DNA of 64,000 nt from assembly GCA_030650095.1 (NCBI GenBank), contig JAUSEE010000033.1:26757-90756 (forward strand), given 5' to 3'. Below are positions 941 through 63,149 of this stretch, piece by piece; position 1 is the stretch's first letter, and each line of letters starts with the position of its first letter. Under the pieces are notes generated by a model. That model ran no database searches, was not told where the DNA came from, and saw nothing but the letters and a program-made list of their open reading frames with translations. The translations under genes and the position numbers were made by a program. Source of the DNA: Candidatus Buchananbacteria bacterium. Its GTDB lineage: Bacteria; Patescibacteriota; Patescibacteriia; 2-01-FULL-39-33.

Positions 941-1048
941 TTAACTAATAGATTTCAAAACAACAACAGCGCTTTTTTAAACAGTCAGACCGCTTTATAA
1001 CAAGGCGGTCTTATTTTATACTGAGTTTAAATTAACTCGGTTTTTTAT

Positions 1049-2179: not shown

Positions 2180-2331
2180 TTTTGTTTGTATTTATTTGAT
2201 TTATTTTAATAGTAAACATCTTACTCCAATAAGCTAAAAAATCAATAATTTAAAACCACAGCTTTTTTATGGCTTAAAAATGAAAAAACCAAAATTCAAA
2301 AAATGAATTAAGGCCTGGTAAAAATATTAAA

Positions 2332-2847
2332 TTAAGTTTCCGAAAATAACCGGTTGATAAGCACCCCGGCAAAATAACTGACCACAATAACTATTGAAGC
2401 AATAAACAAATGTTCCGCTATTATGCCCAGCGGTTTTCTTTTTTGCGATTTGGCTATCATCAAGCTGATGATTGTTAAAAGAAATACGCCCCAAAGGCAG
2501 TTAATAATCACAGCCGATTTGATGTCTACTAAAATCACCGGCAAAATAAAAGTGATGGCAAAAAGAAATTTGGAGGCTAAAGTGGCAATAGTTGTTTGCC
2601 AGATTTCTTTTTGCTTGTCACCGTCTTTGGATTCCTCGGAAATGTGCATGCCCAAAGCATCGGAAAAGGCGTCGGCAATGGCGATGGTGAGTATGCCGCC
2701 CAAAACAGCTAATTTGGAACCAGTGCCTGCTAATAAGCCGATCATTAAGCCTAGGGTGGTAATGACAGCCGAAGTCAATCCAAAATTAAGCCCTGATTTG
2801 AAAGGATTTATTGATCCCTTTTTGGTTTTACGCTTTGACCAAACCAT
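2332..2847 (-). CDS. VIT1/CCC1-family (DUF125-like) membrane protein, putative Fe/Mn transporter
   Basis: 171 aa, ~5 TM helices; Gly-rich helix GLMIGLLAGTG and acidic loop ADAFSDALGMHISEESKD resemble the VIT family short form. Confidence 0.5.
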   Translation of the reverse strand: MVWSKRKTKKGSINPFKSGLNFGLTSAVITTLGLMIGLLAGTGSKLAVLGGILTIAIADAFSDALGMHISEESKDGDKQKEIWQTTIATLASKFLFAITFILPVILVDIKSAVIINCLWGVFLLTIISLMIAKSQKRKPLGIIAEHLFIASIVIVVSYFAGVLINRLFSET

Positions 2848-2913
2848 AGTTTTGATATTATACTTTCTAAGTATGGATATAGTTGTATTTTACCATAAAA
2901 TATAAAAAAATAC

Positions 2914-4059
2914 ATGAATAAAAAAGTAGCTATTGTAGTCTGCGCTTTTCCGCCCCAAGGCGGCGGCATTGGCAATAATGCTTATTATCATTTGCGGGAA
3001 TTAAAAAAAATCGGCTATGAAGCCAAGGTATTCACTCCCAAGTATAAGGATATAAAAAATATAAGCGGTGGAGATGTTGAATATTTGTCGGTTGTCTGGG
3101 CAGTGGGCAAAGCCGGATTTTTATTTTCACTATATAACAGATTAAAAGGATTTGATGTTATTCATTTGTATTATCCTTTTTTTGGCACAGATTTGATAGT
3201 GCTGATTTTTAAATTTTTCCATCCGCATAAGAAACTGGTTTTGCATTATCAAATGGACCCCATTGGTTACGGCTATAGGAAATTTATTTTTAAATTACAC
3301 CTAAAATTATTTTTGCCCTTTCTGATAATAATGAGTGAGAAAATAATCATGCTTTCCAAAGACAATGCCCAGCATAGCTACTTGAGAGGCTATATTAAAA
3401 AGTATAAAAATAAATTTGTCGCCATTTCTAATGGCGTTGATGCCACCGTTTTCAAACCGGCGTCTAAAAATTGGCAACTGGCAGAGCAATATCATATTTC
3501 AGAAAACGATCAAGTGATAGTTTTTGCCGGCGGCTTGGATGACCAGCATTTTTTTAAGGGCGTTGATGTTTTGCTAAAATCTTTTGCTCTCGTATCTCAA
3601 AAAAATAACAATGCCAAATTGATGGTTATCGGCGGTGGCAACAGAAGAAATTATTATGAAAAATTAGCTCAAGATCTTAATCTCTCAGAAAAAGTTATAT
3701 TCACCGGTTGGATAAATAACGAGGCTTTGCCGGATTATTATAACTTGGGAGATATTTTTGTTTTGCCTTCCACTGAAAAGACCGAAAGCTTTGGCATTGT
3801 TATAGCCGAAGCGCAAGCTTGCGGACTTCCGGCTCTAGTTTCCAATTGGCCGGGCAGCCGCTTGACCATAGAAGACAATAAAACCGGTTTTTTAGTAGAA
3901 CCAAAAAATGAACAAGACTTGTCAGAAAAAATAATTAAGCTGCTTAACGATGATGATTTAAGGAAAAAAATGAGCCAGAGCGCATCACTGCGAGCTAGGG
4001 AGAAATATTCTTGGGATTATGTTACTCTTAAAATAGATTCTCTTTATAAAGATTTATGA
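2914..4059 (+). CDS. Glycosyltransferase family 4 (GT-B, GT1/GT4 type)
   Basis: 381 aa; C-terminal GT4 signature ...ESFGIVIAEAQACGLPALVSNWPGS...; N-terminal GGG motif. Confidence 0.8.
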   Translation: MNKKVAIVVCAFPPQGGGIGNNAYYHLRELKKIGYEAKVFTPKYKDIKNISGGDVEYLSVVWAVGKAGFLFSLYNRLKGFDVIHLYYPFFGTDLIVLIFKFFHPHKKLVLHYQMDPIGYGYRKFIFKLHLKLFLPFLIIMSEKIIMLSKDNAQHSYLRGYIKKYKNKFVAISNGVDATVFKPASKNWQLAEQYHISENDQVIVFAGGLDDQHFFKGVDVLLKSFALVSQKNNNAKLMVIGGGNRRNYYEKLAQDLNLSEKVIFTGWINNEALPDYYNLGDIFVLPSTEKTESFGIVIAEAQACGLPALVSNWPGSRLTIEDNKTGFLVEPKNEQDLSEKIIKLLNDDDLRKKMSQSASLRAREKYSWDYVTLKIDSLYKDL

Positions 4060-6023: not shown

Positions 6024-6166
6024 AAATGAACCCGTCCCCGCTCTAAAGAGCGGGGTATCTGGGCGGTTTCAAATGGAGGGTGTCGGCTCCGCCGACGTAT
6101 TTCTCCTCACACTGCCCTTCATCCCCTGGCTTAAAAGCCAGGGGTATTCGGGCAGCAACATTATAA
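6024..6166 (+). repeat. GC-rich three-hairpin intergenic repeat element, copy 1 (full length)
   Basis: Starts 1 nt after the stop of the 4761..6023 CDS. Hairpins ccccgctctaaagagcgggg, gtcggctccgccgac, cccctggcttaaaagccagggg. Near-identical reverse-complement copy at 55767-55912; short copy at 14996-15049. Confidence 0.8.
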
Positions 6167-6601: not shown

Positions 6602-7690
6602 ATGGAAATTTTTTTAATTACTCTCGTGTTGATTTTACTGGCAATTATAATTGCTATGTTTTTAGTCTTCAATCGGAAGCTGTCAATGTTATCTAAACCG
6701 GCTGATGATAAATTGAATTTATTGTTGTTTGAACGTATTAAGGAATTAAACCAAACAATGGATTCCAGTCTCAAGGGTTTGAATCAAACGGTGGACAGCA
6801 AACTGGCCCAGTCCACTCAGCAGATGCAATCGCAATTCAACCAGAGCATCAGCATCGTCAAAGGTATTACGGAAAAGATGACAGAGCTTCAGGAGACCAA
6901 CAAGCAAGTGATGGGTTTTTCGGCCCAGCTTAAAAATCTGGAGAAAGTCTTGACGAGTCAGAAACAGCGTGGCAATTTAGGCGAGGCGGCCTTGCAATTG
7001 GTCTTGGAAAATATCTTGCCGCCGACATCATTTATGTTGCAATACAAGTTTGACGATGGCGACATCGTGGATGCAGTCATCAAGACCAAGGACGGCCTTA
7101 TCCCAGTGGATGCCAAGTTTTCTCTGGATAATTATAATCGCGTCATCAATGAAGATGACGAGGAAAAGCGCCTGGTTTATGAAAAAGAATTCAAGAATGA
7201 TCTGAAGAAGAGAATAGATGAAACCAGCAAGTATATAAAGCCGAGTAAGGGGACGATGGATTTCGCTTTTATGTTTATTCCCGCCGAGGCGATTTATTAT
7301 GATTTGCTGGTCAATGAAGTCGGCGCTATAAAAATAAATACCAGAAGTTTAATTGATTATGCGTTCAAAGAAAAACGAGTCATTATTGTGTCGCCCACGA
7401 CTTTCGCCGCTTATTTGCAAACTGTTTTGCAAGGGCTACGCGCGCTTAAAATAGAAGAGCAGACCAAACAGATTACCAAATGGGTGGAGATGCTGCAGAA
7501 ACACATTTCGGCTTATGATGATTATTTTAAGAAATTGGGCAACAGCTTAAATACAACTGTTAATGCCTATAATACTGCCGACAAAGAATTTAAGAAAATA
7601 GACAAAGACGTAGTTAAGATTACCGGTGTCGAAGGCGTTATCGAACCCCTGCAACTGGATGGGCCGAAGAAGGTTGATTCTAATGATTAA
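6602..7690 (+). CDS. rmuC: DNA recombination protein RmuC
   Basis: 362 aa; N-terminal TM helix, long coiled-coil, C-terminal RmuC nuclease-like core (IPVDAKFSLDNY, FMFIPAEAIYYDLL, VSPTTFAAYLQTV). Confidence 0.8.
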   Translation: MEIFLITLVLILLAIIIAMFLVFNRKLSMLSKPADDKLNLLLFERIKELNQTMDSSLKGLNQTVDSKLAQSTQQMQSQFNQSISIVKGITEKMTELQETNKQVMGFSAQLKNLEKVLTSQKQRGNLGEAALQLVLENILPPTSFMLQYKFDDGDIVDAVIKTKDGLIPVDAKFSLDNYNRVINEDDEEKRLVYEKEFKNDLKKRIDETSKYIKPSKGTMDFAFMFIPAEAIYYDLLVNEVGAIKINTRSLIDYAFKEKRVIIVSPTTFAAYLQTVLQGLRALKIEEQTKQITKWVEMLQKHISAYDDYFKKLGNSLNTTVNAYNTADKEFKKIDKDVVKITGVEGVIEPLQLDGPKKVDSND

Positions 7691-7757: not shown

Positions 7758-8117
7758 ATGGATTACGCTAAACAATTTTTAGGCAAGACTGTTTCGGCCA
7801 AGATAGATAGGCCAATGGGCTCCCGCCATCCCAAACATGGTTTTGTCTATATGGTTAACTATGGTTTCATACCAGAAACCAAAGCGCCCGATGGCGAAGA
7901 GGTGGATGCTTATGTTTTGGGAGTTTTTGAGCCGCAGGATATGTTTACCGGTCGGTGCATTGCTATCATCCATAGAACCAATGATAATGATGACAAGGTG
8001 ATTATCGCTCCCGAGGGCGTGGACTACAGCGACAAACAAATAATGGCCTTAACCGAATTCCAAGAACGATTTTTTAAATCCAAAGTTATAAAAAGATCAA
8101 TAAGAATGATTAAATGA
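7758..8117 (+). CDS. Inorganic pyrophosphatase-like protein (family I fold, short/divergent)
   Basis: 119 aa; NYGFIPETKAPDGEEVDAYVLG aligns to the family I PPase core P-NYGFIP-T...DGDPLDVLV, but two Asp of D-x-D-P-x-D are replaced (DGEEVD). N-terminus is shortened. Confidence 0.5.
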   Translation: MDYAKQFLGKTVSAKIDRPMGSRHPKHGFVYMVNYGFIPETKAPDGEEVDAYVLGVFEPQDMFTGRCIAIIHRTNDNDDKVIIAPEGVDYSDKQIMALTEFQERFFKSKVIKRSIRMIK

Positions 8118-8470
8118 AAATTAATTGCGTATTATTTTTAATAATTTCACTCTTGGTTTTAGGCGGTTGCGTAAAGCAGAATACCAACCAGGCAAGTGAT
8201 AATACAATAATAGCTGATGAAAAATTCTGCATTGCCAAAACGCAGTCAAATATAAGCAGCGATGAAGCTTACGAGATTGCCAAACAAAGCGCTTGCGCTC
8301 AGGCCGGAATTGTAACCGAAGACTGCAATTGCGATAATAATACCTATACTTGTTCCTTTACCATAGAAACTGATAAGACAGATTGCCATCCGGTTTGCGT
8401 GGTTGACTTAAAAACCCAAAAAACAGAAATTGATTGGAACTGTAACGACGGCTCTAAAGCGAGCCCATAA
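8114..8470 (+). CDS. Cys-rich lipoprotein (hypothetical)
   Basis: 118 aa; lipobox LVLGGC at the signal peptide end; 10 Cys in the mature part. Confidence 0.5.
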   Translation: MKINCVLFLIISLLVLGGCVKQNTNQASDNTIIADEKFCIAKTQSNISSDEAYEIAKQSACAQAGIVTEDCNCDNNTYTCSFTIETDKTDCHPVCVVDLKTQKTEIDWNCNDGSKASP

Positions 8471-14995: not shown

Positions 14996-15049
14996 AAATG
15001 AACCCGACCCCGCTCTAAAGAGCGGGGTATTCGGGCAGCAACATTATAA
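14996..15049 (+). repeat. GC-rich repeat element, short copy (first hairpin + 3' tail only)
   Basis: aaatgaacccgaccccgctctaaagagcggggtattcgggcagcaacattataa equals copy 1 minus the internal segment bounded by the ggggtatYYgggc direct repeat. Immediately after the stop of the 14231..14995 CDS. Confidence 0.75.
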
Positions 15050-22754: not shown

Positions 22755-22783
22755 CAAATAGGTTTTATCAAAATAAAAGAAAT

Positions 22784-23398
22784 ATGATCTTAAAACCAAA
22801 AAGTATTGCATTGGTAGTCGCCGTAGTTGTAATTTTGATTGTCGGTGGAGTTTATGTTTGGCAGAAATTTAATAATTCAATTAAAGTATCACATCCAGCG
22901 GTAGTTGTTGGTGATAAATATATTCTTGATAAAGTAGGTAGTAATTATAATAAACTTTTTGAATACCAAGAAGGGTATTGTGGTTTAAATCCAAACTCAA
23001 ATCAGAAAGAATGTACCCTTATTTATGATTTTAAAGGAGTGGATGAAGACTTTGATATTCAATTTAGTATAACTGAAAATTATGAGGTAACAACTCAGGC
23101 TAATTATATTAAAATACCAAACTGCTTATCCTATCCAGAGAAATGCACTATTATACCCAAGTCAAAAGCAATAAAGATTGCTCAAGAGAATAAATTTGAG
23201 GGAGATGAAAAATTGTGGACGGTTAATTTTGATTGGGATGCACATTACAATACGGATGCTTATGTTTGGCAAATTTTTGTCACGACAGGACCCGGTCCAT
23301 GCGGTAAAAATGGACAAAATGTCGGTAAAGTAATGATAATTAGTGCGTATTCTGGAAAAGTTTTAGGTATAGAGAATACCGGCGGCGCCTGTTATTAA
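22784..23398 (+). CDS. Membrane-anchored secreted protein, paralog 1 of 3 (MILKPK family)
   Basis: 204 aa; N-terminal MILKPKSIALVVAVVVILIVGGVYVWQK is identical at DNA level (100 nt including 5'UTR) to paralog 2; variable Cys-containing ectodomain. Confidence 0.6.
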   Translation: MILKPKSIALVVAVVVILIVGGVYVWQKFNNSIKVSHPAVVVGDKYILDKVGSNYNKLFEYQEGYCGLNPNSNQKECTLIYDFKGVDEDFDIQFSITENYEVTTQANYIKIPNCLSYPEKCTIIPKSKAIKIAQENKFEGDEKLWTVNFDWDAHYNTDAYVWQIFVTTGPGPCGKNGQNVGKVMIISAYSGKVLGIENTGGACY

Positions 23399-23418
23399 TA
23401 AATCAAAATAAAAGAAAT

Positions 23419-23802
23419 ATGATCTTAAAACCAAAAAGTATTGCATTGGTAGTCGCCGTAGTTGTAATTTTGATTGTCGGTGGAGTTTATGTTTGGCAGA
23501 AGTCAACTCTTTCAGATCTGAAAGGGGCAAAAGAATTAGATAATGAAAGAGCTGAATGTGAGCTAAAAGGAGGCAAATGGATTAATCATGGAGATTTGTA
23601 TCCACCAAAACCGGTCTGTAATTTGCCAACAGCTGATGCCGGGAAAAAATGCACTGATTCTGATCAATGTGAAAGTTATTGTCAGGCACCAAAGAATTCT
23701 AAAATCGGAGTAAACACTACCGGTACATGTTATGAATGGAAACTTGCAGAATGTATGCAAGAAGTCAAAGACGGTAAAGCTGAAGCCACATGGTGTTATT
23801 AG
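23419..23802 (+). CDS. Membrane-anchored Cys-rich secreted protein, paralog 2 of 3
   Basis: 127 aa; same signal-anchor; 8 Cys in an ~95-aa ectodomain; ends WCY. Confidence 0.6.
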   Translation: MILKPKSIALVVAVVVILIVGGVYVWQKSTLSDLKGAKELDNERAECELKGGKWINHGDLYPPKPVCNLPTADAGKKCTDSDQCESYCQAPKNSKIGVNTTGTCYEWKLAECMQEVKDGKAEATWCY

Positions 23803-32354: not shown

Positions 32355-33395
32355 ATGAGTTTGCCAAAAGTCACAATTCAAATAGTCACTTGGAACAGCC
32401 TGAAATATTTGCCCTTTGTTTTGGAGTCTATTTTTAATCAGACTTATAGAGATTTTCAAGTTTTGGTCATAGATAATAATTCCCAGGATGAAACAGTTGA
32501 TTTTATCAGAAAAAATTATCCCGAGGTGACGGTTTTTAAAAATAAGAAGAATCTGGGTTTTGCCAAAGCCAACAACCAAGGCATAAGACTGCTCCATTCG
32601 CCTTGTATTATTCTTTGCAATCAGGATATAGTGTTAGAAAATAATTGGTTGGAGATTATTATGTCAAAAGTAGAATCTGATGACTATGAAGATGTTGGCA
32701 GCTTTGGCGGCAAATTGCTTAAATTAAAGCCCAGCAATGGTGAAATTGATCAGACCAGTAAAACCAATACCATCGATTCTTGCGGCTTAAAAATTAATAG
32801 GCACAGAAGAATTACAGAAATCGGAGCCGGTGAAGATTCTGGCAAATTCAATGAAGACCGGGAAGTCTTTGGCTGTTCCGGGGCATTGGTTTTATACCGC
32901 AGGGATCTATTGGAAGATTGTTTGATTAAAACCAAAAACAATCCCCAGGGAGAATATTTTGATGAAGATTTCATTTCTTATAAAGAAGATGTTGATTTAG
33001 CTTGGCGGGCCAGGATCTTGGGCTGGAAATCGATGTTTATAAGTTCTGCCATCGCTTACCATGTGCGTTCCGTTTCCGGTTCAGAAAATAATGTTTTAGT
33101 TGAAATTATAAAAAACAGAAAAAAACAATCTTCTTTGGCTAAATATTATTCTTATCGCAATCACTTTCTTTTGCTGATTAAAAATGAGTTTACCCGTAAT
33201 TTTTTCCATGATTTTTGGCAGATAAAATGGTTTGAAGTCAAAAAAGCCGCTTATATTTTTATTTTTGAAGTTAAAAACATAAAAGCCTGGCTGGCAGTAT
33301 TGGTTCTTCTGCCGAAGATGCTGGCTAAAAGAAAAGAGATTTTTAAAAAAGCCAAGGTGGATTACGGGCAGATGTCTAATTGGCTAAAAAAATAA
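32355..33395 (+). CDS. Glycosyltransferase family 2
   Basis: 346 aa; VTIQIVTWNSLKYL...VLVIDNNSQDETV (GT2 DxD region). Confidence 0.75.
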   Translation: MSLPKVTIQIVTWNSLKYLPFVLESIFNQTYRDFQVLVIDNNSQDETVDFIRKNYPEVTVFKNKKNLGFAKANNQGIRLLHSPCIILCNQDIVLENNWLEIIMSKVESDDYEDVGSFGGKLLKLKPSNGEIDQTSKTNTIDSCGLKINRHRRITEIGAGEDSGKFNEDREVFGCSGALVLYRRDLLEDCLIKTKNNPQGEYFDEDFISYKEDVDLAWRARILGWKSMFISSAIAYHVRSVSGSENNVLVEIIKNRKKQSSLAKYYSYRNHFLLLIKNEFTRNFFHDFWQIKWFEVKKAAYIFIFEVKNIKAWLAVLVLLPKMLAKRKEIFKKAKVDYGQMSNWLKK

Positions 33396-33396
33396 A

Positions 33397-34212
33397 ATGG
33401 AAATATCAATAATAATAAATAATTATAAAACCAAAGGTCTGCTTAAGCAATGCTTAAGGGGCATTTACGCTTATCCACCCAGTGTTGATTATGAAATCAT
33501 AGTGGTTGATAATAATTCTAAGGATGGATCAGTGGAAATAGTCAAAGAGCAATTTAAGCAGGTAAAACTAATTGAAGCCCGGGAAAATCTCGGCCATCAT
33601 AAGGGCAATAATTTGGGCATTAAAAATTCCAGCGGCAGATATATTCTAATTCTTAACACCGATATAGCTCTTTTGGATAATTCCGTTGATAAGATGTACC
33701 AGTTTATGGAATCTCATCAGGCAGCGGCCTTAGTCGGACCCAAGTTAAAAAATCCCGACGGTTCCACGCAGTTGTCTTGCATGAGGTTTCCCAGCAAGCT
33801 GGTGCCAATTTATCGCAGGACGTTTTTAGGCAATTTTGCCTTTGCTAAAAAAGAAATTGATTATTATCTGATGAAAGATTTTGATCATCTGTCAACCCGC
33901 GAAGTCGATTGGATTCTGGGCGCTTGTGTTTTGGTGAGAAAGGCAGCGATTGATAAAGTCGGCTTGATGGATGAGGATTTATTTCTGTATTTTGGGGATA
34001 TCGCTTGGTGCAATAAATTCTGGGAATTTAATTATAAGGTTTATTATTTTGTCGATGCTGATATCGTCCATTATCATAAGCGCGAATCGGCTCAAAGCGG
34101 TATTTTCTCTTTCGTTTTCTGGATCCATATAATCGACTGGATAAGATATTTAAAAAAATATTCTTCTAAACCCAATGCTAAAAAATTACAATCCATTTCA
34201 CCCAGAACCTAA
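33397..34212 (+). CDS. Glycosyltransferase family 2
   Basis: 271 aa; ISIIINNYKT...EIIVVDNNSKDGS, ILNTDIAL. Confidence 0.7.
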   Translation: MEISIIINNYKTKGLLKQCLRGIYAYPPSVDYEIIVVDNNSKDGSVEIVKEQFKQVKLIEARENLGHHKGNNLGIKNSSGRYILILNTDIALLDNSVDKMYQFMESHQAAALVGPKLKNPDGSTQLSCMRFPSKLVPIYRRTFLGNFAFAKKEIDYYLMKDFDHLSTREVDWILGACVLVRKAAIDKVGLMDEDLFLYFGDIAWCNKFWEFNYKVYYFVDADIVHYHKRESAQSGIFSFVFWIHIIDWIRYLKKYSSKPNAKKLQSISPRT

Positions 34213-36115
34213 GCCTAAAAAAACTTTAGGATTCAAAGCCTTTGTTTCAATAGCGGTTGTTTTTTTGGCGTTTCTAATTATTCTATTTACGCCCTTTATT
34301 TTTCATGGCCTTAAAGCTTCTTCTTATGCCGTTGCTTCTTTAGGCGAGGCGCGCGGTTTGCTTGACAGTATTCAAGCAAACAGATGGTCGGAGGCCGCTT
34401 TAAAATCAAATTCTATTAGTATTAATCTGGAGAAATTAAATTATGAAATAAGCCGTCTTGGACCGCTGAGTCGCTTGCCCAAATTAAAAAATGATTTTAT
34501 TGCCGCTCGTCAATTCATAGGCGTAGCCCAGTCTTTAATGTCCGGCTATTCTCAAACGCTTAGTATTTTTGAAGAAGTGGAGAAATCAGGAGTTTTAATT
34601 GATCCCGCCACTTTGCTGGAAAACAAAGAAGCTTTAGGCTTGATTGGCGAGAATAAAGACAAGCTGGCTCTGGCCCAGAAAAATCTTGATCAAGCCAATG
34701 CCAGATTCAGAGAAATTAATACCAGTGAATTTTCTGGCTTCTTCTCCAAATATTTGATTAAGGCCCATGATCAACTCGGCCAGATTTTGGATAGCACCAA
34801 TATCGCCATTCCGGCTATCGGGCTTCTGACTGATTTTCTGGGCTATGAGAATGAGAAGCATTATTTACTGGTCTTTGAAAATAACATGGAGCTAAGGCCG
34901 ACAGGCGGATTTATAGGTTCTTATGGCATCATTACCGTCAAAGATGGAAAAATAAAAGATATTTTTACCGATGATGTTTATAATCTGGATAAATTGTCTG
35001 AAGGCAAAATGACAGAGCCGGCTCCCCGTCCCATGGCTCTTTATAATAATCAGAAATATTGGTATATGCGTGATGCCAATTGGTTTCCTTCTTGGCCTGA
35101 TTCGGCTCAAAAAATAGTTGAGTTTTTCCATAAGGAAAGAGCCAATGCTAACTTGCCGGATCAAAAAATAGACGGAGTGATTGCTATTACGCCTGATTTC
35201 ATAGCCAACCTTTTAGAAGTTCTGGGCCCGATTGAAATCCATGGCATCAAATTTTCTTCTAATAATTTTGCCATGGATTTGGAGAAATTCGTGGAAGGCG
35301 GCTTTGAAGAAAAAAATATTCCCTATGAAGAACGCAAAGCAATCATCGGCTTTTTGTCGCAGACTATAATCGAGAGGGCAGAAAAAGTAAAATCAACTGA
35401 TTTTACCAAACTCTGGCTGGCCTTTAAAAAGAACATAGATCAAAAAAACATTTTGGTTTATATTTTTGATGACAAATTGCAAAAGTATTTTTCGGATAGG
35501 AATTGGGCCGGTGAAATCAGGCAGACCGAGGGTGATTATTTGATGGTTATCGACAGCAATCTGGCCTCACTAAAAACAGATTCGGTTATGGCCAGATCCA
35601 TTAAAAGAAGTTTATCATTAAATCAATCAGGCGATTTAATAGCGCGACTGGAAATAACTTATAAACACAATGGGCAATTTGTGCGTAATTTAATTACCAG
35701 ATATCGCACTTATGCAAAAGTTTATGTGCCCGAAGGTTCTTGGTTTGAAAGCGGATCAATCAAATCTGGCAATGAAGAAACTAAAATAAACATGTCTAAA
35801 GATTTGGAATACGGCGCAGAATACAATAAATCATACGCTGCTTATTTTTTAATAATCGAACCCGGGATGTCTAAAACGGTCATTTTAAATTACAAATTGC
35901 CGTCTGCCCTTAAAAAACAGTCTGAAGCTGGCATTTACAGCTTATTAGTTCAAAAGCAACCTGGCACCATTGGACATAAATTAGTAATTGATTTAAACTT
36001 GAGTAGAGAAATTTCCGCTTATCAATCAGCCTCCTGGCCCGATTATTACAATAAAAAATCAATCGGTTGGCAAAGCGATTTGTCTGTTGATAGGGGATAT
36101 AAATTAAAATTTTAA
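34175..36115 (+). CDS. Membrane-anchored large extracytoplasmic protein (hypothetical; envelope polysaccharide cluster member)
   Basis: 646 aa; single N-terminal TM; overlaps upstream GT2 by 38 nt. Confidence 0.45.
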   Translation: MLKNYNPFHPEPKPKKTLGFKAFVSIAVVFLAFLIILFTPFIFHGLKASSYAVASLGEARGLLDSIQANRWSEAALKSNSISINLEKLNYEISRLGPLSRLPKLKNDFIAARQFIGVAQSLMSGYSQTLSIFEEVEKSGVLIDPATLLENKEALGLIGENKDKLALAQKNLDQANARFREINTSEFSGFFSKYLIKAHDQLGQILDSTNIAIPAIGLLTDFLGYENEKHYLLVFENNMELRPTGGFIGSYGIITVKDGKIKDIFTDDVYNLDKLSEGKMTEPAPRPMALYNNQKYWYMRDANWFPSWPDSAQKIVEFFHKERANANLPDQKIDGVIAITPDFIANLLEVLGPIEIHGIKFSSNNFAMDLEKFVEGGFEEKNIPYEERKAIIGFLSQTIIERAEKVKSTDFTKLWLAFKKNIDQKNILVYIFDDKLQKYFSDRNWAGEIRQTEGDYLMVIDSNLASLKTDSVMARSIKRSLSLNQSGDLIARLEITYKHNGQFVRNLITRYRTYAKVYVPEGSWFESGSIKSGNEETKINMSKDLEYGAEYNKSYAAYFLIIEPGMSKTVILNYKLPSALKKQSEAGIYSLLVQKQPGTIGHKLVIDLNLSREISAYQSASWPDYYNKKSIGWQSDLSVDRGYKLKF

Positions 36116-36124
36116 TGATTTTAA

Positions 36125-37132
36125 ATGTTTTTAAGAAGAATAGGAATTGATTTGGGGACGACTAATATTTTAGTTCATGTGCCGAAAAGGGGGGTAGTTA
36201 TCAATGAGCCATCGGTAGTGGCCATTTCTAATATTGATAAAAAAATTATTGCTGTCGGCGCCGAAGCCAAAGAAATGCTGGGCCGAACGCCTGATACTAT
36301 TATTGCCCGGCGCCCGCTAAAAGATGGCGTGATTGCCGATTATAAAACCACCGAAGCTATGTTGAGATATTTTATCAATAAAGCTTTGGGCGGGGTGAGG
36401 ATTTTTAGGCCAGAGGTGATGGTGGCTGTTCCCGCTGGCATCACATCCACCGAAAGGCGCGCCGTTATTGATGCTACTATTGCCGCCGGAGCCAAAGCTG
36501 CTTACATTATCAAAGAGCCAATCGTAGCCGCCATTGGCGCCAATATTCCCATTGGCAGCGCTTCCGGACATATGATTATCGATATTGGCGGCGGCACTTC
36601 GGAAATTGCCGTTATTTCCTTGGGTGGCATAGTTTCTTCCACTTCGGTTAGGATAGGTGGCAACAAATTGGATATAGCGATTACTGAACACATTAGAAAA
36701 AAATATGGCCTGGCTATCGGCGAGATGACAGCCGAACGGGTTAAAATCAGTATCGGCTCAGCCTTGTATTTGGATGAAAAGCTTTATATGGATGTCAGAG
36801 GACGGGATATGATTACCGGACTGCCAAAAACCATCAGTGTGTCATCTGATGATGTTACCGATGCTATTCAAGCTGAACTCGAGGGCATCAGCAGTGCGGT
36901 TAAAAATGTTTTGTATAAAACTCCGCCGGAGTTATCGGCTGATGTGATTGATAAGGGGATTGTTATGTCTGGTGGCACCAGCTTGCTTAGAAATATTGAT
37001 AAAATGGTTTCTTTGACAACTGGCGTGTCCGCTTATGTAGCTGATGATGCTCTTTATTGCGTAGCCAAAGGCACAGGCATTGCGCTGGATAATTTAGAGA
37101 GTTATAAGAGATCAATTTTGGCGACAAAATAG
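36125..37132 (+). CDS. mreB: Rod shape-determining protein MreB (actin-like ATPase), paralog A
   Basis: 335 aa; IGIDLGTTN phosphate-1, DIGGGTSE phosphate-2, MSGGTSLLRNIDK adenosine motif. Confidence 0.85.
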   Translation: MFLRRIGIDLGTTNILVHVPKRGVVINEPSVVAISNIDKKIIAVGAEAKEMLGRTPDTIIARRPLKDGVIADYKTTEAMLRYFINKALGGVRIFRPEVMVAVPAGITSTERRAVIDATIAAGAKAAYIIKEPIVAAIGANIPIGSASGHMIIDIGGGTSEIAVISLGGIVSSTSVRIGGNKLDIAITEHIRKKYGLAIGEMTAERVKISIGSALYLDEKLYMDVRGRDMITGLPKTISVSSDDVTDAIQAELEGISSAVKNVLYKTPPELSADVIDKGIVMSGGTSLLRNIDKMVSLTTGVSAYVADDALYCVAKGTGIALDNLESYKRSILATK

Positions 37133-37140
37133 TTTTTGGC

Positions 37141-37168
37141 TTGTTACGTAGCCTGCTACGTAACAAAG
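37141..37168. repeat. Perfect hairpin TTGTTACGTAGC-ct-GCTACGTAACAA
   Basis: 12-bp perfect stem 8 nt after the mreB stop; no clean U-run. Confidence 0.6.
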
Positions 37169-37249
37169 TAGGTAATTGATTTTCTTTGGTATTTTTTTAC
37201 AATAAATTGTTTATAGCAACTTTTTGGTATCAAAAAGTTGCGCAAAAAA

Positions 37250-37386
37250 TACGAGCGATGAAAATTTGGCGCTTCAAGTAAAATTCTAACAAAGTTTTTA
37301 GACTCGTCCGCCTTGGGCGGACTCAAACAGTAAAAACTTTGTAACTCATTTTACTTTCCGCTTAATCCAAATTTTCATATGCTCGA
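37250..37386. repeat. Long imperfect inverted repeat (~50-nt arms) around central hairpin GTCCGCC-ttgg-GCGGAC
   Basis: Arms cgagcgatgaaaatttgg...acaaagttttta / taaaaactttgt...ccaaattttcatatgctcg match at ~75%. Confidence 0.5.
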
Positions 37387-37569
37387 ATCATTAGGTGTTT
37401 ATAAAAATATAATAAAATATGGCGAACATTAAAAAATATTGTGCTAATTTTATATTAAAGTGAGCGTTAAGAAGTCAATATTCTGTTGCTATTTTGATTA
37501 TTGGCTTTAGCGAGCTTATATAAAATTAGCCATGATTTTTTACGTTCGCGAGTTTTGGGGAAACCTTTT

Positions 37570-37655
37570 GCGGTCAAAAGGTTTCAAGAAGATATTTGGC
37601 GGTCCAAAAGTAACAAGAGAAATATTTTAAGGCTAAAAAGTAACAGAGAATATGA
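37570..37655 (+). repeat. Three tandem imperfect ~28-nt direct repeats (gcggtcaaaag-N-agaaatatt)
   Basis: gcggtcaaaaggtttcaagaagatattt / ggcggtccaaaagtaacaagagaaatatttt / aaggctaaaaagtaacagagaatatg. Confidence 0.45.
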
Positions 37656-37742
37656 TTGTGGAGCTTGTTCCGAGCATAGCGAGGAATCTCTCTCGCAATG
37701 ACAGAAAGAATAAATTATAATTATTATTAAAATAATATAGAA

Positions 37743-37788
37743 ATATCTCCGCACACATCTCCGGAGATATGTGCGGAGATATTTCTAT
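37743..37788. promoter_or_regulatory. 46-nt near-perfect palindrome overlapping the promoter/5' region of the GT4 gene (candidate operator)
   Basis: gaaatatctccgcacaCatctccggagatAtgtgcggagatatttc: 16+5 bp arms around CCGG with a single mismatch pair. TATAAAAT follows at 37787-37794, and the ATG is at 37803. Confidence 0.5.
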
Positions 37789-37802
37789 AAAATCATTTGC
37801 TT

Positions 37803-38918
37803 ATGATTATCGGCATAGACGCTTCGCGCGCCAACAGGCCAAATAAAACAGGCGTGGAATGGTACTCCTACCATTTAATCCAAGAATTAAAAAAAATTAC
37901 TCCGGAAAATATCCAGGTTCTTTTGTATGCCAATGAAAAATTAGTCAACGGTTTAGAAGATTGTCCGGCTAATTTTAAGGAAAAAATTTTAAGCTGGCCG
38001 CCAAAATATTTATGGACGCAAATCCGCTTGGCTTGGGAATTATCTTTGCATGCGCCCGACGTTTTGTTTGTGCCGGCTCATACCATTCCTTTTTGGCCAA
38101 TAAGACGTAGAACCAAAGTTTATGTTGTGGTTCATGACGTCGGTTTTAAAAGGTATCCTGATTTATATAAAAAAATACAGTTTTATTATCACGATCTTAC
38201 CATGAAAGCTATCAAGCGCCGGGCTGATAGAATAATCACTATCTCTGATTTTTCTAAAAAAGAAATCATGGATTTATACCAGGTTAATGCCGATAAAATA
38301 ATTGTTATACCTCTAGGCTATGACGAAAACAAATACAACACTGGTGTTTTAGAAAATAAAAATGTTTTAGATAAATATAAAATCAGCCAGCCCTATATTT
38401 TGTATGTCGGCCGTTTGGAAAAAAAGAAAAATATCGGCAACATTGTAAAATCATTTGCTTATGCTAAAACTTCAAATCCTGATTTAAAGCTGGCTTTAGC
38501 CGGCCAAGCCGGCAATGAATACGAGGCTATTGCCAAAATAATTTCCAGCCATAAATTGGAAAATGAAATCCTGCTGCCTGGTTATATTGATGAAGATGAT
38601 TTGCCGGCGGTTATGAAGATGGCGGAAATATTTTTATTTCCCACTCTCTATGAAGGTTTTGGCTTGCCAATTTTACAAGCCATGGCCTTGGGCACGCCGG
38701 TTGTAGCTTCCGATATCGAACCTCATAAATCAGTCGCCGGCCAGGCGGCGGCCTTGGCTGATCCAAAAAATCCGGAAAATATTGCCCAGCAAATAAATAA
38801 AATCATCAAAGATAGGGAATTTAAAGACGAGCTTAAAGTTCGAGGACTCAAAAGAGCGGCTGAATTTTCTTGGACTAAAACAGCTGTTAAAACATTAGCG
38901 GTTATAGCCAAAAAATAA
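37803..38918 (+). CDS. Glycosyltransferase family 4
   Basis: ORF track 37797..; probable start MIIGIDAS at 37803; C-terminal EGFGLPILQAMALGTPVVASDIEPH. Confidence 0.8.
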   Translation: MIIGIDASRANRPNKTGVEWYSYHLIQELKKITPENIQVLLYANEKLVNGLEDCPANFKEKILSWPPKYLWTQIRLAWELSLHAPDVLFVPAHTIPFWPIRRRTKVYVVVHDVGFKRYPDLYKKIQFYYHDLTMKAIKRRADRIITISDFSKKEIMDLYQVNADKIIVIPLGYDENKYNTGVLENKNVLDKYKISQPYILYVGRLEKKKNIGNIVKSFAYAKTSNPDLKLALAGQAGNEYEAIAKIISSHKLENEILLPGYIDEDDLPAVMKMAEIFLFPTLYEGFGLPILQAMALGTPVVASDIEPHKSVAGQAAALADPKNPENIAQQINKIIKDREFKDELKVRGLKRAAEFSWTKTAVKTLAVIAKK

Positions 38919-38985
38919 AATTGGTTAAGTGTCATTATTTAATCAGTTTTTTATTCAATCAATGGTTGTCTTGTTGGGCTGATTT

Positions 38986-40032
38986 GTGTTAAAATTTAAA
39001 GTAATGAAACAGATCAGTAGCCGTCAGTTTAATTGGGATGTGTGTGGACATGATAAAATTGTCCATTTTTTGCAGTCGGCCATTTTAAGCGGCAATTTAA
39101 CCCAGGCCTATTTATTTTCCGGTCCCAGCGGCTTGGGAAAAAAGTTTGTGGCCAGTAAGCTGATAGCTTCAATTTTATGCCAAAACTTGGAAAAGCCTGT
39201 TCCTTGCGGGGTTTGCTCCAGTTGCCAGCAGGTGGCAAATGGGCTTCATCCGGATTTTTATACTGTTAACCAGGAAATAAACGAAAAAACAGGCAAGTTA
39301 AGCCGTGGCATTATAATTGATCAGATTAGGAATTTAAAATATAAGTTGCAACAGGGCACTTTGCTCAACGGTTATAAGGTGGCTTTGATTAGTGATGCTC
39401 ATTTGATGAATTTAAACACCTCAAACGCGCTTCTTAAGATATTAGAAGAGCCGACTTCCAATACGGTCATTATACTTTTAGCCGATGATGTTTCGTATCT
39501 GCCCCAGACGATTTCTTCCCGTTGCCAAATTGTAAGATTTTTGCCGGTGGCGACTTCTGATATAAAATCATATTTGGAAAACAGAGGAGTCTTCGATTCC
39601 GGCCTGATCGCCAGACAGGCTAACGGCCGTCCCGGAGTGGCTATTGATTTGTCTAATAATAAAGAGTTAGCCGATGGCGTTAAAAATAATATTGACGGAT
39701 TTTTCAAAATAATTGAAGCTGATTTGAATTCCAGATTCGAAATAGCCGATAAAATAATCAGCTGGGATAAAGACGAGTATATTAATATTTCTTCTTTAAA
39801 TAACTTAATGCACAATTGGCAATTGGCCTTAAGAGACGTGATGCTAATCAAAAGCGACAACGAACAATTAGTTTCCAATATAAATTATCTGGATAAACTG
39901 AAAGAGCAGGCTGAAATTTTAGACTTTCTTAAAATCAAAACAATTTTAAGAAAAATAAATCAAGTTGATGATTACGCCAAACATAACATTAATTCCAAAT
40001 CAATTTTAGAAAATTTAATCATAAATTTATGA
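38986..40032 (+). CDS. holB: DNA polymerase III delta-prime subunit
   Basis: 348 aa (alt start 39004); AAA+ P-loop SGPSGLGKKF, zinc module CGVCSSCQQVANGLHPDF, sensor motifs. Confidence 0.75.
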   Translation: MLKFKVMKQISSRQFNWDVCGHDKIVHFLQSAILSGNLTQAYLFSGPSGLGKKFVASKLIASILCQNLEKPVPCGVCSSCQQVANGLHPDFYTVNQEINEKTGKLSRGIIIDQIRNLKYKLQQGTLLNGYKVALISDAHLMNLNTSNALLKILEEPTSNTVIILLADDVSYLPQTISSRCQIVRFLPVATSDIKSYLENRGVFDSGLIARQANGRPGVAIDLSNNKELADGVKNNIDGFFKIIEADLNSRFEIADKIISWDKDEYINISSLNNLMHNWQLALRDVMLIKSDNEQLVSNINYLDKLKEQAEILDFLKIKTILRKINQVDDYAKHNINSKSILENLIINL

Positions 40033-41102
40033 GACTTAAAAAAATAATGTTTTTTTCTTTTTTGGCGCTGACCGCTGTCCTAGTTAGCGGTTGCACCATT
40101 AAGATCGGCAATGGCAAAGCCACAGCTGTTGATGGCGGTGTTTTTAAATCCACCGACGGCGGACAAGTTTGGGCTCAAGTGGCCTCAGTCCCATCTTCTG
40201 GCGGTAAAATAGCCAGTATAGCCAATGTAGATATTCGGCGCATGGTTTTTGATCCATCTGATTACAATACTATTTACTTGTCAACCGAAAAGAATGGCGT
40301 TATTTATACCAATGACAGCGGCGCCAATTGGCATCAGTTTAAGCAGTTTGTCGGCGCTAAAATCAATGCCGTGGCTATTGATCCAAACGATAAATGTAAT
40401 CTATATGTTTTGTATGCCAATAAAATATATAAGTCCACCGATTGCGGCCGGTTTTGGGATGATATTTATGTCCATCAAAATACCGGAGTTATTCTATCTG
40501 ACATAGTTGTTGATTATGTTAATAGCTCCATTGTTTATATTACTACCAATGTCGGTGAAATATTAAGGAGTAATGATGGTGGCAGTAATTGGGCCACAGT
40601 TAATCGCGTTAATAAAGGTGTTTTCTTGGATTTAGTGATGGACGCTAAAGATAGCAGAATAGTTTATGCCGCTACGCAAAAAAGCGGTGTTTATAAAACA
40701 ACAGACAGCGGCAAAACATGGAATAGTTTGGGTGATGGGCTTAAAGCCTATTCCGGCAGTCAGGAGTATAAAGGCTTGATAATAAGTCCATCAGTCAAAG
40801 ACGGTTTGATTTTAATCTCAAAATTTGGCATGCTAAGGACTTCGGATGGCGGAGCCAACTGGGAAGTGGTAGAATTATTGCCAGCTTCCAAACAAACCAC
40901 AATTTACTCTGTGGCTGTTAATCCCAAAGATAGCAGTGAAATTTATTATGCGACTAGGACAACTCTTGTCAAATCAGTCGATAGCGGCAAAACTTGGTCA
41001 TCACAAGCCTTGCCTACTAGCCGTATAGCCAATCGCCTGATTATCAATCCCGATAACCCCCTAACAATTTATTTAGGAACATCAAAACCCAGCGAAAAAT
41101 AA
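40029..41102 (+). CDS. Lipoprotein with BNR/Asp-box repeats (beta-propeller, Ycf48/sortilin-like)
   Basis: 357 aa; lipobox LVSGC; seven S/T-x-D-x-G-x-x-W motifs (STDGGQVW, TNDSGANW, STDCGRFW, SNDGGSNW, TTDSGKTW, TSDGGANW, SVDSGKTW). Confidence 0.6.
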   Translation: MRLKKIMFFSFLALTAVLVSGCTIKIGNGKATAVDGGVFKSTDGGQVWAQVASVPSSGGKIASIANVDIRRMVFDPSDYNTIYLSTEKNGVIYTNDSGANWHQFKQFVGAKINAVAIDPNDKCNLYVLYANKIYKSTDCGRFWDDIYVHQNTGVILSDIVVDYVNSSIVYITTNVGEILRSNDGGSNWATVNRVNKGVFLDLVMDAKDSRIVYAATQKSGVYKTTDSGKTWNSLGDGLKAYSGSQEYKGLIISPSVKDGLILISKFGMLRTSDGGANWEVVELLPASKQTTIYSVAVNPKDSSEIYYATRTTLVKSVDSGKTWSSQALPTSRIANRLIINPDNPLTIYLGTSKPSEK

Positions 41103-41127
41103 ATATCATTAATATAAGTTAAAAAAT

Positions 41128-41679
41128 ATGAGTATAGTGGATAATCATAAGATTGATTTCAATAAAACCATGGATCATTTTGTCAGCGATATGGCCACGC
41201 TTAAAACCGGACGAGCCAATCCGGCGGTTTTAGATTCCATTAAGGTGGAGGCTTATGGTTCTTTTGTGCCTATCAATCAGGTGGCTTCTATTGCCGTGCC
41301 GGAAGCCAGATCAATTATAATCCAGCCTTGGGATAAGAGTGTTATTAACAATATAGACAAAGCTATTAGGGAATCTGATTTGGGGCTAAGCCCGATAAAC
41401 GAAGGAGATAAGATCAGAATATCTATTCCGCAAATGACCGAGGAATCAAGAAAAGAAATAGTTAAAAATTTAAACAAAAAAATGGAAGATGCCCGTATTG
41501 CTATTAGGGGAGTGCGCGATGAAATAAAAGAAGAGATTTTGACCGCCGAAAAGAATAAGGAATTCGGCGAAGATGAAAAGTACAGCTTAATCGAGCAGTT
41601 AGACAAGATGACTGGCGATTTCAACAATAAAATAAAAGAGTTGGGGGATAAAAAAGAAAAAGAAATAATGACTGTTTAA
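41128..41679 (+). CDS. frr: Ribosome recycling factor
   Basis: 183 aa; RRF pattern ...IRISIPQMTEESRKEIVK..., three-helix bundle + beta domain. Confidence 0.9.
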   Translation: MSIVDNHKIDFNKTMDHFVSDMATLKTGRANPAVLDSIKVEAYGSFVPINQVASIAVPEARSIIIQPWDKSVINNIDKAIRESDLGLSPINEGDKIRISIPQMTEESRKEIVKNLNKKMEDARIAIRGVRDEIKEEILTAEKNKEFGEDEKYSLIEQLDKMTGDFNNKIKELGDKKEKEIMTV

Positions 41680-41680
41680 T

Positions 41681-42853
41681 ATGATTATTACCATAATAGT
41701 ATTCGCCTTAGTTTTGTCGGTGATTGTTTTTGTCCATGAACTGGGACATTTTTCTACTGCCAGAAAATTAGGCGTTAAGGTGGATGAATTCGGTTTGGGC
41801 TTGCCGCCCAGGATTTTTGGCTTAAGGAAGATTGATGGCAAATTCAAATTAGTGTTTGGGAAGAAGCCCATAGAAAAAGACGGTCCGACAATTTATTCCT
41901 TGAATTGGATTCCGGTTGGCGGTTTTGTTAAAATAAAAGGCGAATCCGGCGAAGAAGCCGAGGCTAGTGACAGTTTTGCCGGCAAAGCTATTTGGAAAAG
42001 GGTGGTGATGATCGTGGCGGGCGTAGTGATGAATGTTATTTTGTGCATGATTCTTCTATCTATCGGTTTTGGTTTTGGCATGCCGGCTTCTTTGGATGAT
42101 AACCTAAGCAGTCGAGCGATAGTATCTAATAAAAGCTTGCAGATAATCCAACTTATGCCGGAAGGCCAAGCTAAAATAGCCGGCGTTCAGGTTGGTGATG
42201 TGATTGCCAAGGTTGACGGCCGGGAATTTGAAACTATCAGCGAACTAAACACTTTTCTTTCGTCTAATAATGATAAGGAACTTAATTTTGAATTTATCAG
42301 GCGAGGCGAGGCTATAGAAAAGAAAATAAAAATCAGCCCCTATTCTTTTGAGGAGAGGGAAGTAATAGGCATTGGCATAGGACTGATAGAAACAGCCACA
42401 GTGCGCTATCCTTGGTATTTGGCCGTTTATAAGGGTATTGTGGCTACCTTTGTTTGGATGTTGGCTATTGTTGTCGCTTTTGCCACGGTTATAAAGAATC
42501 TCATCATTGGCGTTCCAACCGGCGTGGAAGTTGCCGGACCGGTGGGCATAGCAGTTTTAACCGGCCAAGCGGCTAAGATGGGCGTTATTTATTTGTTGCA
42601 ATTTACGGCTTTATTGTCCTTGAATCTGGCGATTATTAATATCCTGCCTTTTCCGGCGTTGGACGGCGGACGATTATTATTTTTAATTTTGGAAAAGATA
42701 AGAGGCAAAGCGGTTAAGCAGGAATGGGAGAATCTGGCGCATAACATCGGCTTTTTAATTTTAATGGGCTTGGTTTTACTGGTGACATTTGGCGATATCG
42801 TAAAATATGGCGGTGGACTTTTTGGATTCATCAAGAATATATTCGGTCTTTAA
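41681..42853 (+). CDS. rseP: RIP zinc metalloprotease RseP (site-2 protease)
   Basis: 390 aa; HELGH in TM1, PDZ domain (IAGVQVGDVIAKVDG), NILPFPALDGG LDG motif. Confidence 0.85.
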   Translation: MIITIIVFALVLSVIVFVHELGHFSTARKLGVKVDEFGLGLPPRIFGLRKIDGKFKLVFGKKPIEKDGPTIYSLNWIPVGGFVKIKGESGEEAEASDSFAGKAIWKRVVMIVAGVVMNVILCMILLSIGFGFGMPASLDDNLSSRAIVSNKSLQIIQLMPEGQAKIAGVQVGDVIAKVDGREFETISELNTFLSSNNDKELNFEFIRRGEAIEKKIKISPYSFEEREVIGIGIGLIETATVRYPWYLAVYKGIVATFVWMLAIVVAFATVIKNLIIGVPTGVEVAGPVGIAVLTGQAAKMGVIYLLQFTALLSLNLAIINILPFPALDGGRLLFLILEKIRGKAVKQEWENLAHNIGFLILMGLVLLVTFGDIVKYGGGLFGFIKNIFGL

Positions 42854-43279: not shown

Positions 43280-43357
43280 GTCATTGCGATGGAGCTCAAG
43301 CGACTAAAGCAATCTCGTATTCCATAAACATGGGATTGCTTCGTTCCTCGCAATGAC
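43280..43357. repeat. Nested-hairpin repeat, family B copy 1 (GTCATTGCGA...AAGCAATC...GATTGCTT...TCGCAATGAC)
   Basis: Outer 10-bp perfect stem and inner 8-bp stem. Related copy at 63084-63149; half-copy at 37693-37702. Confidence 0.7.
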
Positions 43358-55766: not shown

Positions 55767-55912
55767 TTATAATGTTGCTGCCCGAATACCCCTGGCTTTT
55801 AAGCCAGGGGACGGGGGGCAGTGTGAGGAAAAATACGTCGGCGGAGCCGACACCTTCCATTTGAAACCGCCCGGATACCCCGCTCTTTAGAGCGGGGTCG
55901 GGTTCATTGAAA
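55767..55912 (-). repeat. GC-rich three-hairpin repeat element, copy 3 (full length, reverse orientation)
   Basis: Reverse complement matches 6024-6166 over ~140 nt with a few substitutions. Lies directly after the stop of the minus-strand CDS 55996..56430 and upstream of gyrB. Confidence 0.8.
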
Positions 55913-63083: not shown

Positions 63084-63149
63084 GTCATTGCGAGCCTGCG
63101 AAGCAATCCCAGGGGATCGCCACGGTCGCTTGCGCTCTCTCGCGATGAC
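63084..63149. repeat. Nested-hairpin repeat, family B copy 2 (GTCATTGCGAGC...AAGCAATCC...TCGCGATGAC)
   Basis: Same outer stem as 43280-43357 (one G-U change) and the same AAGCAATC inner motif; 10 nt before the dnaJ ATG. Confidence 0.7.

Follow-up and report, generated by a model that had tools for sequence, protein, structure and literature searches.

A probable stack of non-autonomous hairpin repeat elements between mreB and a GT4 glycosyltransferase gene in Candidatus Buchananbacteria

Repetitive extragenic palindromic (REP) sequences form doublets (REPINs) that fold into hairpins and are mobilised by REP-associated tyrosine transposases (RAYTs). Enterobacterial repetitive intergenic consensus (ERIC) sequences, or intergenic repeat units (IRUs), are imperfect palindromes of ~127 nucleotides (nt) found in enterobacteria. 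Intercistronic stem-loops, such as the REP sequence of malE-malF or RNase III sites, set differential mRNA stability and processing within operons. Here we describe a 670-nt gap that separates mreB from a GT4 glycosyltransferase gene in a 64,000-nt stretch of Candidatus Buchananbacteria DNA (phylum Patescibacteriota), referred to below as the window. We consider it probable, though far from certain, that this gap is a lineage-specific stack of non-autonomous hairpin repeat elements, similar to REPs and to transposable elements of the miniature inverted-repeat type (MITEs), at a permissive operon junction. On the best reading, three kinds of element are stacked in it: a composite (hp2-LH-B-r1) made of two long hairpins, LH and B, between two terminal ones, hp2 and r1; one unit of a repeat that we call REP-B; and a locus-specific hairpin, P. 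General background on bacterial MITEs is given in PMC3184786, PMC10969869 and PMC11602168.

Like a MITE, the composite is a small non-coding unit that is bounded by terminal inverted repeats and folds into long hairpins; it is intergenic and occupies several unrelated loci in both orientations, with empty sites in relatives. Unlike MITEs, it has a very low copy number per genome in the DNA examined, its conservation between genomes saturated at synonymous sites extends beyond the terminal repeats to the internal sequence, and its ends are themselves perfect palindromic hairpins. REP-B is a short imperfect palindrome, extragenic and multi-copy, and is REP/REPIN-like in its doublet architecture, as its inverted doublets of 78-92 nt amount to one larger hairpin. 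However, its sequence is unrelated to enterobacterial or Pseudomonas REPs, it spans many Patescibacteria as well as contigs classed as viral, and one doublet (in L082; L-numbers of the type L001-L098 label the related loci compared with the window) encloses 308 nt of foreign cargo. The composite also recalls ERIC/IRU sequences: it consists of long imperfect palindromes between co-directional genes, non-coding yet strongly conserved between species, with a low to moderate copy number and size variants produced by insertions at fixed internal sites (L091, L093). It differs from them in sequence and phylum, and in that LH and B are paired inside a unit bounded by terminal inverted repeats. P and another hairpin, H (L002, L006, L085, L097), resemble intercistronic stem-loops in lying between co-directional cluster genes and in pairing that outlasts sequence change, but P lacks a U-tract and its almost perfect duplex of 25-27 bp is far longer than typical stabilisers.

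Patescibacteria (candidate phyla radiation, CPR) have small, tightly packed genomes, and their non-coding DNA has hardly been studied. These organisms have at least one widespread REP/REPIN-like family, as well as one narrow composite with terminal inverted repeats. The kind of element is familiar (MITE, REP/REPIN, ERIC-like palindromes), and these particular families appear to be undescribed; our literature search found no description of Patescibacteria repeats like these or of the repeat core sequence, the hits for the REP-B core being unrelated primer coincidences. It is unusual that low-copy non-coding modules outdo the synonymous sites of neighbouring essential genes in conservation.

Architecture of the mreB–GT4 gap

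As originally predicted from the DNA letters and a list of open reading frames (ORFs), the gap is the longest non-coding stretch in a compact window: by a greedy ORF map, which gives a coding fraction of 0.90 for the 64 kb, it measures 664 nt, against 367 nt for the runner-up. All six repeat elements listed in that prediction exist, with coordinates and sizes slightly corrected. The parts of the gap and its two flanks are as follows.

36125..37132, plus strand: mreB, the upstream flank (Pfam MreB_Mbl, E = 1e-128; 96% amino acid identity to L002)
37141..37166, no strand assigned: hp1, a hairpin with arms at 37141-37152 and 37155-37166 (12 nt, 100% complementary, 2 nt apart)
37178..37200, plus strand: hpA remnant, the left arm only of an outer left-end hairpin (GATTTTCTTTGGTATTTTTTTAC; assigned by eye)
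37216..37241, plus strand: hp2, left terminal hairpin of the composite (arms 37216-37226 and 37231-37241, 11 bp, perfect, loop GTAT)
37250..37388, no strand assigned: LH, a 135-nt imperfect long hairpin with homologues in L082 (reversed), L097, L002 and L093
37400..37413, plus strand: AT-rich centre of the composite, with the -10-like hexamers TATAAA (37400-37405) and TATAAT (37408-37413), 7-8 nt before B
37421..37552, plus strand: B core, a 132-nt conserved hairpin with copies in L002, L097, L093, L092 and L091
37560..37585, plus strand: r1, right terminal hairpin of the composite (11 bp, perfect), with orthologous hairpins in L002, L097, L093, L092 and L091
37566..37650, plus strand: tandem array r1-r2-r3 (Tandem Repeats Finder: period 29, 2.9 copies, 75% matches, score 79)
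37654..37704, minus strand: a complete single REP-B unit (GTCATTGCGAG...GCAATC), with the exact 11-mer GTCATTGCGAG at 37692-37702
37736..37789, plus strand: P, a 54-nt palindrome/hairpin with arms at 37736-37762 and 37763-37789 (27 nt each, one mismatch, centred on CCGG)
37803..38918, plus strand: GT4 glycosyltransferase gene, the downstream flank (Pfam Glycos_transf_1 and Glyco_transf_4; exact protein on record)

Judged by sequence comparison, the modules have homologues with a defined distribution, relatives possess terminal inverted repeats, and the predicted pairing has been kept by compensatory changes. The entire 670 nt folds with a minimum free energy (MFE) of -219.6 kcal/mol, compared with -137 +/- 6 for shuffles (z = -13.7). 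The ~135-nt quasi-palindrome predicted at 37250-37386 was borne out as LH, whose fold (37252-37385) has an MFE of -51.7 kcal/mol (z = -9.6; 0 of 200 shuffles equally stable) and compensatory changes in 12 predicted pairs. In the alignment of B, 96% of the cells of its 44 pairs are paired and six pairs show a compensatory change, a result reached by none of 500 shuffles; slid controls gave 27-45% pairing, an advantage that is partly built in because the structure was derived from the same sequences.

From hp2 to r1 (37216-37585) the composite is 370 nt long here and 887 nt in L002, where it carries a passenger ORF. Its terminal inverted repeats comprise the hairpin, a CAAAA linker and the start of the LH and B closing stems, with hp2 as the partner of r1. 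They score 38 over ~55 nt in L097 and 34 over ~32 nt in L002 (0 of 500 shuffles as high in either locus). In the window the score is 17, with 26 of 500 shuffles as high, and therefore the terminal inverted repeats appear to have decayed here. The possibility that LH is wholly the reverse complement of B was examined in the window and, outside the terminal segment, found no support (202 of 500 shuffles reached the score). The hp2 stems are all perfect, and their sequences differ (GCAACTTTTTG, GCTCCTTTTG, GCTACTTTTTG and GGTACTTTTTT in the window, L082, L097 and L002, respectively). The hp2/r1 hairpin was also considered as a genome-wide REP and rejected: within the 64 kb it is confined to this gap, and a stricter pattern found nothing in the related loci.

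At the right end, the original prediction of three tandem imperfect 28-nt direct repeats was correct as to the array but not as to its period, which is 29. A repeat search delimits units of 24 nt, 71-75% identical, at three positions (37563, 37592 and 37622). Both r2 and r3 bear a AAAAGTAACA(A)GAGAA tail; the L092 and L093 copies have this tail once, at their right end. Seen against the other copies, in each of which it is single, the supposed iterons are a triplicated, decaying right terminal hairpin. At the left end, the hpA remnant resembles L093 8629-8658 (TTTTCTCTTTGGTACTTTTTTAC) and L097 from position 141 onward. The predicted 11-bp hairpin hp2 kept its stem and GTAT loop, its end moving from 37243 to 37241. 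Likewise, the perfect 12-bp hairpin placed at 37141-37168 (hp1) ends at 37166 and is effectively an ~11-bp stem with a 4-nt loop. It lies just 3' of the mreB stop codon; no second copy was found in the window or the fetched loci, and its position holds a REP-B unit (GTCATTGCGAG) in L002, L082 and L097.

What had been described as a half-copy of a repeat family at 37693-37702 does belong to that family but is a whole REP-B unit (37654-37704), 83.7% identical over 49 nt to L092 2792-2839. The 11-mer GTCATTGCGAG has six matches in the window, compared with 0.62 expected, and none of 100 shuffles reaches six. REP-B is present in 11 of the 81 related loci, and a pattern with 22 specified bases matched 82 IMG/VR stretches, several of which often share a contig. 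Inverted doublets (44 plus-then-minus pairs) are mostly 78-92 nt long, with further examples in L043 and L055; the L082 pair, at 368 nt, is an outlier and carries cargo. The outer end of the REP-B unit in the gap forms the -35-like hexamer of a promoter-like site, ATGACA-18 nt-TATTAT (37698..37727, plus strand), which is a consensus match only (10 of 12 positions). Elsewhere in the window, two complete REP-B doublets (43280-43357 and 63084-63149) form intergenic hairpins of ~70-80 nt.

P ends 13 nt upstream of the GT4 ATG. The predicted palindrome with a CCGG centre and a single mismatch is real and longer than the 46 nt (37743-37788) first given to it. Its conservation extends to L082, L086 and L097, where it holds the same position.

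Copies of the modules and the variable junction

The synteny DUF4012-mreB-GT4(-holB) is kept in ~60 of 80 Patescibacteria loci, with an mreB–GT4 spacing most often of 3-20 nt. Within the close subclade (GT4 71-79% identical), the content of this junction is extremely variable. It is a 49-nt AT-rich spacer in L096 (MreB 94% and GT4 72% identical to the window) and 13 nt in L003; unrelated ORFs of 115, 225 and 203 aa occupy it in L089, L094 and L086, respectively, and hairpin-repeat modules in the window, L002, L082, L097 and L085. Comparison of orthologous loci, proposed with the original prediction as a check, thus found the block absent from most relatives and present in a narrow Buchananbacteria subclade. 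Because mreB and GT4 are usually near-adjacent in relatives, including the short spacers of L096 and L003, synteny shows the block to be an insertion confined to this subclade, the ancestral spacer having been very short.

The window and L097 (GT4 74% identical) are collinear across the entire gap. The order in L097 is a REP-B unit, the outer hairpin, hp2, LH, B, r1, another small REP, AT-rich DNA, a P-like palindrome, H and the ATG. L002 (MreB 96% identical) follows this order, with a 150-aa hydrophobic ORF added between LH and B; H is present and P absent. In L082, 37-nt GTCATTGCGAG terminal repeats, 92% complementary, enclose the 308 nt of cargo, which consists of the first half of B followed by LH and hp2 reversed relative to the window. 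In L085, B lies reversed ~65 nt from GT4, and the contig ends inside B.

A 21-nt degenerate B pattern was scanned against JGI metagenome contigs. It found four stretches: one in the L002 contig, and three at other loci, all from one sample (Ga0210057). None of these three loci (L091-L093) adjoins mreB or GT4. L093 has the full composite between convergent genes; L092 has B and r1 reversed, upstream of glyA (named by eye from the translated N-terminus); L091 has B and r1 reversed, downstream of a 92-aa membrane ORF. One L093 flank is orthologous to window genes at 1049-3651, where the window has a 108-nt spacer (941-1048) with an ordinary terminator and no element. The unit is thus found at several unrelated loci in both orientations, with empty or short sites in L096, L003 and window 941-1048. 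The original prediction had offered three origins for the quasi-palindrome and direct repeats: a decayed MITE or insertion sequence (IS) end, a structured RNA, or iterons. A MITE-like composite recurring in both orientations agrees with the first, the second is possible for B, and the third gives way to decayed terminal hairpins.

Neither a covariance model for B nor nhmmer profiles for B and LH found further copies in ~1 Mb of Patescibacteria loci or in the window, and we therefore regard the B/LH family as narrow and low-copy. IMG/VR scanned with two B patterns gave zero matches, and the gap matched nothing in phage and plasmid collections by BLAST. Two Logan contigs, both carrying GT4 or its homologue, break in repeats (window 37674 is the start of L001, and L085 starts inside B). 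Such breaks are to be expected if the repeats are multi-copy or polymorphic in those samples; short-read assemblies break in these repeats.

In the Ga0210057 copies, small GC-rich palindromic hairpins of CCTGCC...GGCAGG types are nested at fixed points in the B and LH modules (L091 9735-9907; L093 8690-8735 and 9079-9122; L092 322-372). They form a second layer of insertion into an AT-rich element.

Besides the repeat modules, small ORFs are found in the gap of relatives (150 aa in L002, 101 aa in L082, 203 aa in L086, 115 aa in L089 and 225 aa in L094). By blastp and tblastn they are unrelated to one another and to the window sequence. When six small ORFs were searched against Pfam, five had no family, and the 92-aa ORF of L091 gave only weak sub-threshold matches, e.g. 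DUF4190. In many other relatives an unrelated long hairpin occupies the same spacer, which suggests that having a hairpin between the two genes is tolerated or useful. The DUF4012-mreB-GT4-holB cell-envelope cluster has one junction at which insertions recur, among them hairpin elements and small ORFs in which no domain is recognised. Hairpin H (GAACACTTCACAC...GTGTGAAGTGTTC) lies directly upstream of the GT4 start in four lineages (L006 3676-3711; L002 8020-8046; L085 72-100; L097 746-774). These include the distant L006 (GT4 58% identical), where H takes up the entire 36-nt spacer, with a T-run after it. H is missing from the window and was found only upstream of GT4; it may be an ancestral intercistronic hairpin.

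Small insertions recur along the mreB–GT4 gene cluster. In L082 a 70-aa gene with a 23S_rRNA_IVP Pfam match (7974-8186) is inserted between frr and rseP of the same conserved cluster, and in L075 the 647-nt mreB–GT4 gap (7009-7651) holds an ORF that resembles a 23S_rRNA_IVP gene by eye only. Upstream of GT4 in L095 (~425-495) lies a tRNA-like stretch with a GGTTCGACTCC T-arm motif; ARAGORN calls no tRNA there, and the stretch may be a fragment or an unusual tRNA.

Mobile repeats, host RNA or regulatory DNA

Several observations weigh against the view that the modules are mobile repeats. No clean target-site duplication is readable in the window, L002, L093 or L082, where the flanks are AT-rich and inversely similar (TTTTA...TAAAA), and no transposase or autonomous partner turned up in the DNA examined, of which no systematic transposase scan was made. 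B and LH occur once each in the 64-kb window and the B pattern once in the 565-kb L002 contig, unlike the behaviour of high-copy MITEs and REPs. The four-fold degenerate sites of mreB and GT4 are saturated (33-56% identity between the window and L082, L002 or L086), and despite this the modules are 81-90% identical: LH with hp2 is 84.5% identical over 194 nt to L082, the P region 84%, and B 81-90% to the L002, L097, L093, L092 and L091 copies. Moreover, the window, L097 and L002 are collinear over the whole gap, and collinearity together with conservation past saturation would be explained no less well by vertical inheritance and purifying selection for a host function than by selfish spread. 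Finally, the plus strand of B folds 7-12 kcal/mol better than the other; all six copies, even the two whose loci are reversed, favour this element strand (RNAalifold, -37.8 against -31.8 kcal/mol on the opposite strand); G-U pairs of the favoured strand become A-C mismatches on the other. A TATAAA/TATAAT box, a candidate promoter, stands 5-8 nt upstream of B in six of six copies (by eye). The strand-specific fold and the -10-like box are as expected of an RNA gene; LH and P have no consistent strand preference.

The same facts make up much of the case for a different explanation, namely that B, and possibly LH, are undescribed structured small-RNA genes of ~130-190 nt, kept by purifying selection at mreB–GT4 and duplicated elsewhere in some genomes, with the flanking hairpins as part of the transcript or as its boundaries. 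In addition to identity at saturated divergence, collinearity, low copy number, strand-specific folding with its G-U/A-C asymmetry and a box upstream of every copy, the compensatory changes of B include a paired insertion in L097, its apical loop is variable, and two large insertions sit outside the helices. However, no canonical terminator follows B: r1 lacks a U-tract, though the genome has canonical terminators elsewhere, and an intrinsic-terminator scan left hp1, hp2 and r1 unflagged on the plus strand and flagged P on the minus strand only. A convincing -35 element is missing, L082, L085, L091 and L092 have rearranged, inverted or truncated modules, and the unit is bounded by terminal inverted repeats. 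Conservation is near-uniform along B rather than focused on its stems, which suggests recent common ancestry of the copies, and the ends of a single-stranded-DNA transposon would give an equal strand asymmetry. No Rfam family matched anywhere in the window at gathering thresholds; at E up to 10, the gap gave generic miRNA-precursor hairpin matches over P, far below gathering scores, and a search of the 64 kb for tRNA and tmRNA found none. Overall, we regard small-RNA genes as possible but unlikely. It is doubtful, in particular, that B (132 nt), perhaps with LH, is an undescribed Candidatus Buchananbacteria RNA family with a strand-specific fold, transcribed outward from the AT-rich centre and under purifying selection; such a putative RNA could be regulatory, or a guide or scaffold for a protein encoded elsewhere. 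Evidence that the B/LH modules are RNAs would place them with the small number of candidates for CPR-specific non-coding RNAs; as mobile DNA and nothing more, they would represent ordinary biology in an under-described phylum.

The remaining alternatives concern P or the gap as a whole. According to the original prediction, P is a dimeric-repressor operator; in this alternative it overlaps the GT4 promoter, and the rest of the gap is promoter or upstream regulatory DNA. The central 22 bp of P (CACAYATCWCCGGAGATATGTG) are conserved in four lineages, the TATAAA/TATAAT box at its 3' edge, which in the window is TATAAA at 37786, is invariant in all four, and P is locus-specific, always upstream of GT4. 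Because the centre and the box are kept, a promoter or operator role is possible. However, the half-site, suggested as a means to define a regulon, has four matches in the 64 kb compared with 1.05 expected, the sole extra one having two mismatches and lying inside another repeat, so that it does not recur beyond chance; in 98 related loci it is found at the orthologous position only, and the core of P has zero matches in IMG/VR. A Pfam scan of the ten neighbouring ORFs (32355-42853) found neither a DNA-binding regulator domain nor an integrase. The outer 12 bp of each arm are fully replaced in L097 yet still complementary, a pattern that marks a base-paired hairpin and not a protein half-site. 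Over the four lineages, P has 25 pairs with 92% of cells paired, and nine of the pairs have changed in a compensatory way; none of 500 shuffles scored as high, and operators need no such pairing. Furthermore, the 27-nt arms far exceed typical half-sites, a different hairpin (ACACTTCACAC...) occupies the same place in L002, L085 and L006 (both are present in L097), and no acceptable -35 lies at 17 nt from the TATAAA box (by eye). A repressor operator is thus improbable. Still less can be said for a missed or decayed protein-coding gene, which we judge very improbable even though relatives carry small ORFs of 101-225 aa in the same gap, as these are mutually unrelated, unrelated to the window and without a Pfam family. 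The longest ORF in the window's gap has 66 aa, no Pfam match and an interruption in L002, where the gap ORFs are not conserved. The six aligned copies of the conserved block differ by five 1-nt indels and by substitutions without 3-periodicity; gene callers place unsupported small ORFs over the homologous region of L097. Since the ORFs are not conserved, indels of 1 nt occur and codon periodicity is absent, the gap is non-coding DNA rather than a missed gene, so that conserved coding in relatives, which would have undermined the original prediction, was not observed. Variable, unrelated small ORFs beside long imperfect hairpins at one locus might also suggest an integron-like cassette junction (attC), and three tandem repeats beside AT-rich DNA a replication origin with iterons. 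We consider both extremely improbable: the ends of LH and B lack RYYYAAC/GTTRRRY core sites (by eye), the neighbouring ORFs include no integrase, the tandem units are a decayed terminal hairpin that is single in every other copy, and cumulative GC skew rises steadily across the region without an inflection. A simple invertible promoter switch was considered as well, given the reversed segments in L082 and L085, but a single clean inversion between repeats that can be identified does not account for the rearrangement, and there is no recombinase close by.

Returning to a stack of non-autonomous repeats, we can outline how it might work. The elements would spread, or would once have spread, by transposition or recombination through an enzyme encoded elsewhere. 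Once resident, they may act as single-stranded hairpins, most likely in the plus-sense transcript, and could interrupt or insulate the co-transcription of mreB and GT4. P would then be a processing or stability hairpin located at the 5' end of the GT4 message or close to it.

Flanking gene and other repeats of the window

An exact look-up of the window's MreB protein matched no record; its best relatives are Candidatus Buchananbacteria and other Patescibacteria.

Two further repeats were noticed in the window. A GC-rich repeat of 142 nt is present at 6025-6166 and, inverted, at 55767-55908; the two copies are 95% identical and 49.6 kb apart. It is predicted to form three hairpins (-70.6 kcal/mol, z = -7.3), and a third copy (14997-15049) is without the middle hairpin; all three copies are intergenic. 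Nothing in Rfam matched this repeat at threshold, the best match being HgcC with 22 bits against a gathering score of 50. The other is a direct repeat of 113 nt (22767-22879 and 23402-23514, 95% identical). A 19-nt motif at 22783, 23418 and 23850 marks the start of three consecutive ORFs of 204, 127 and 165 aa, which suggests a small tandem paralogous family sharing 5' ends.

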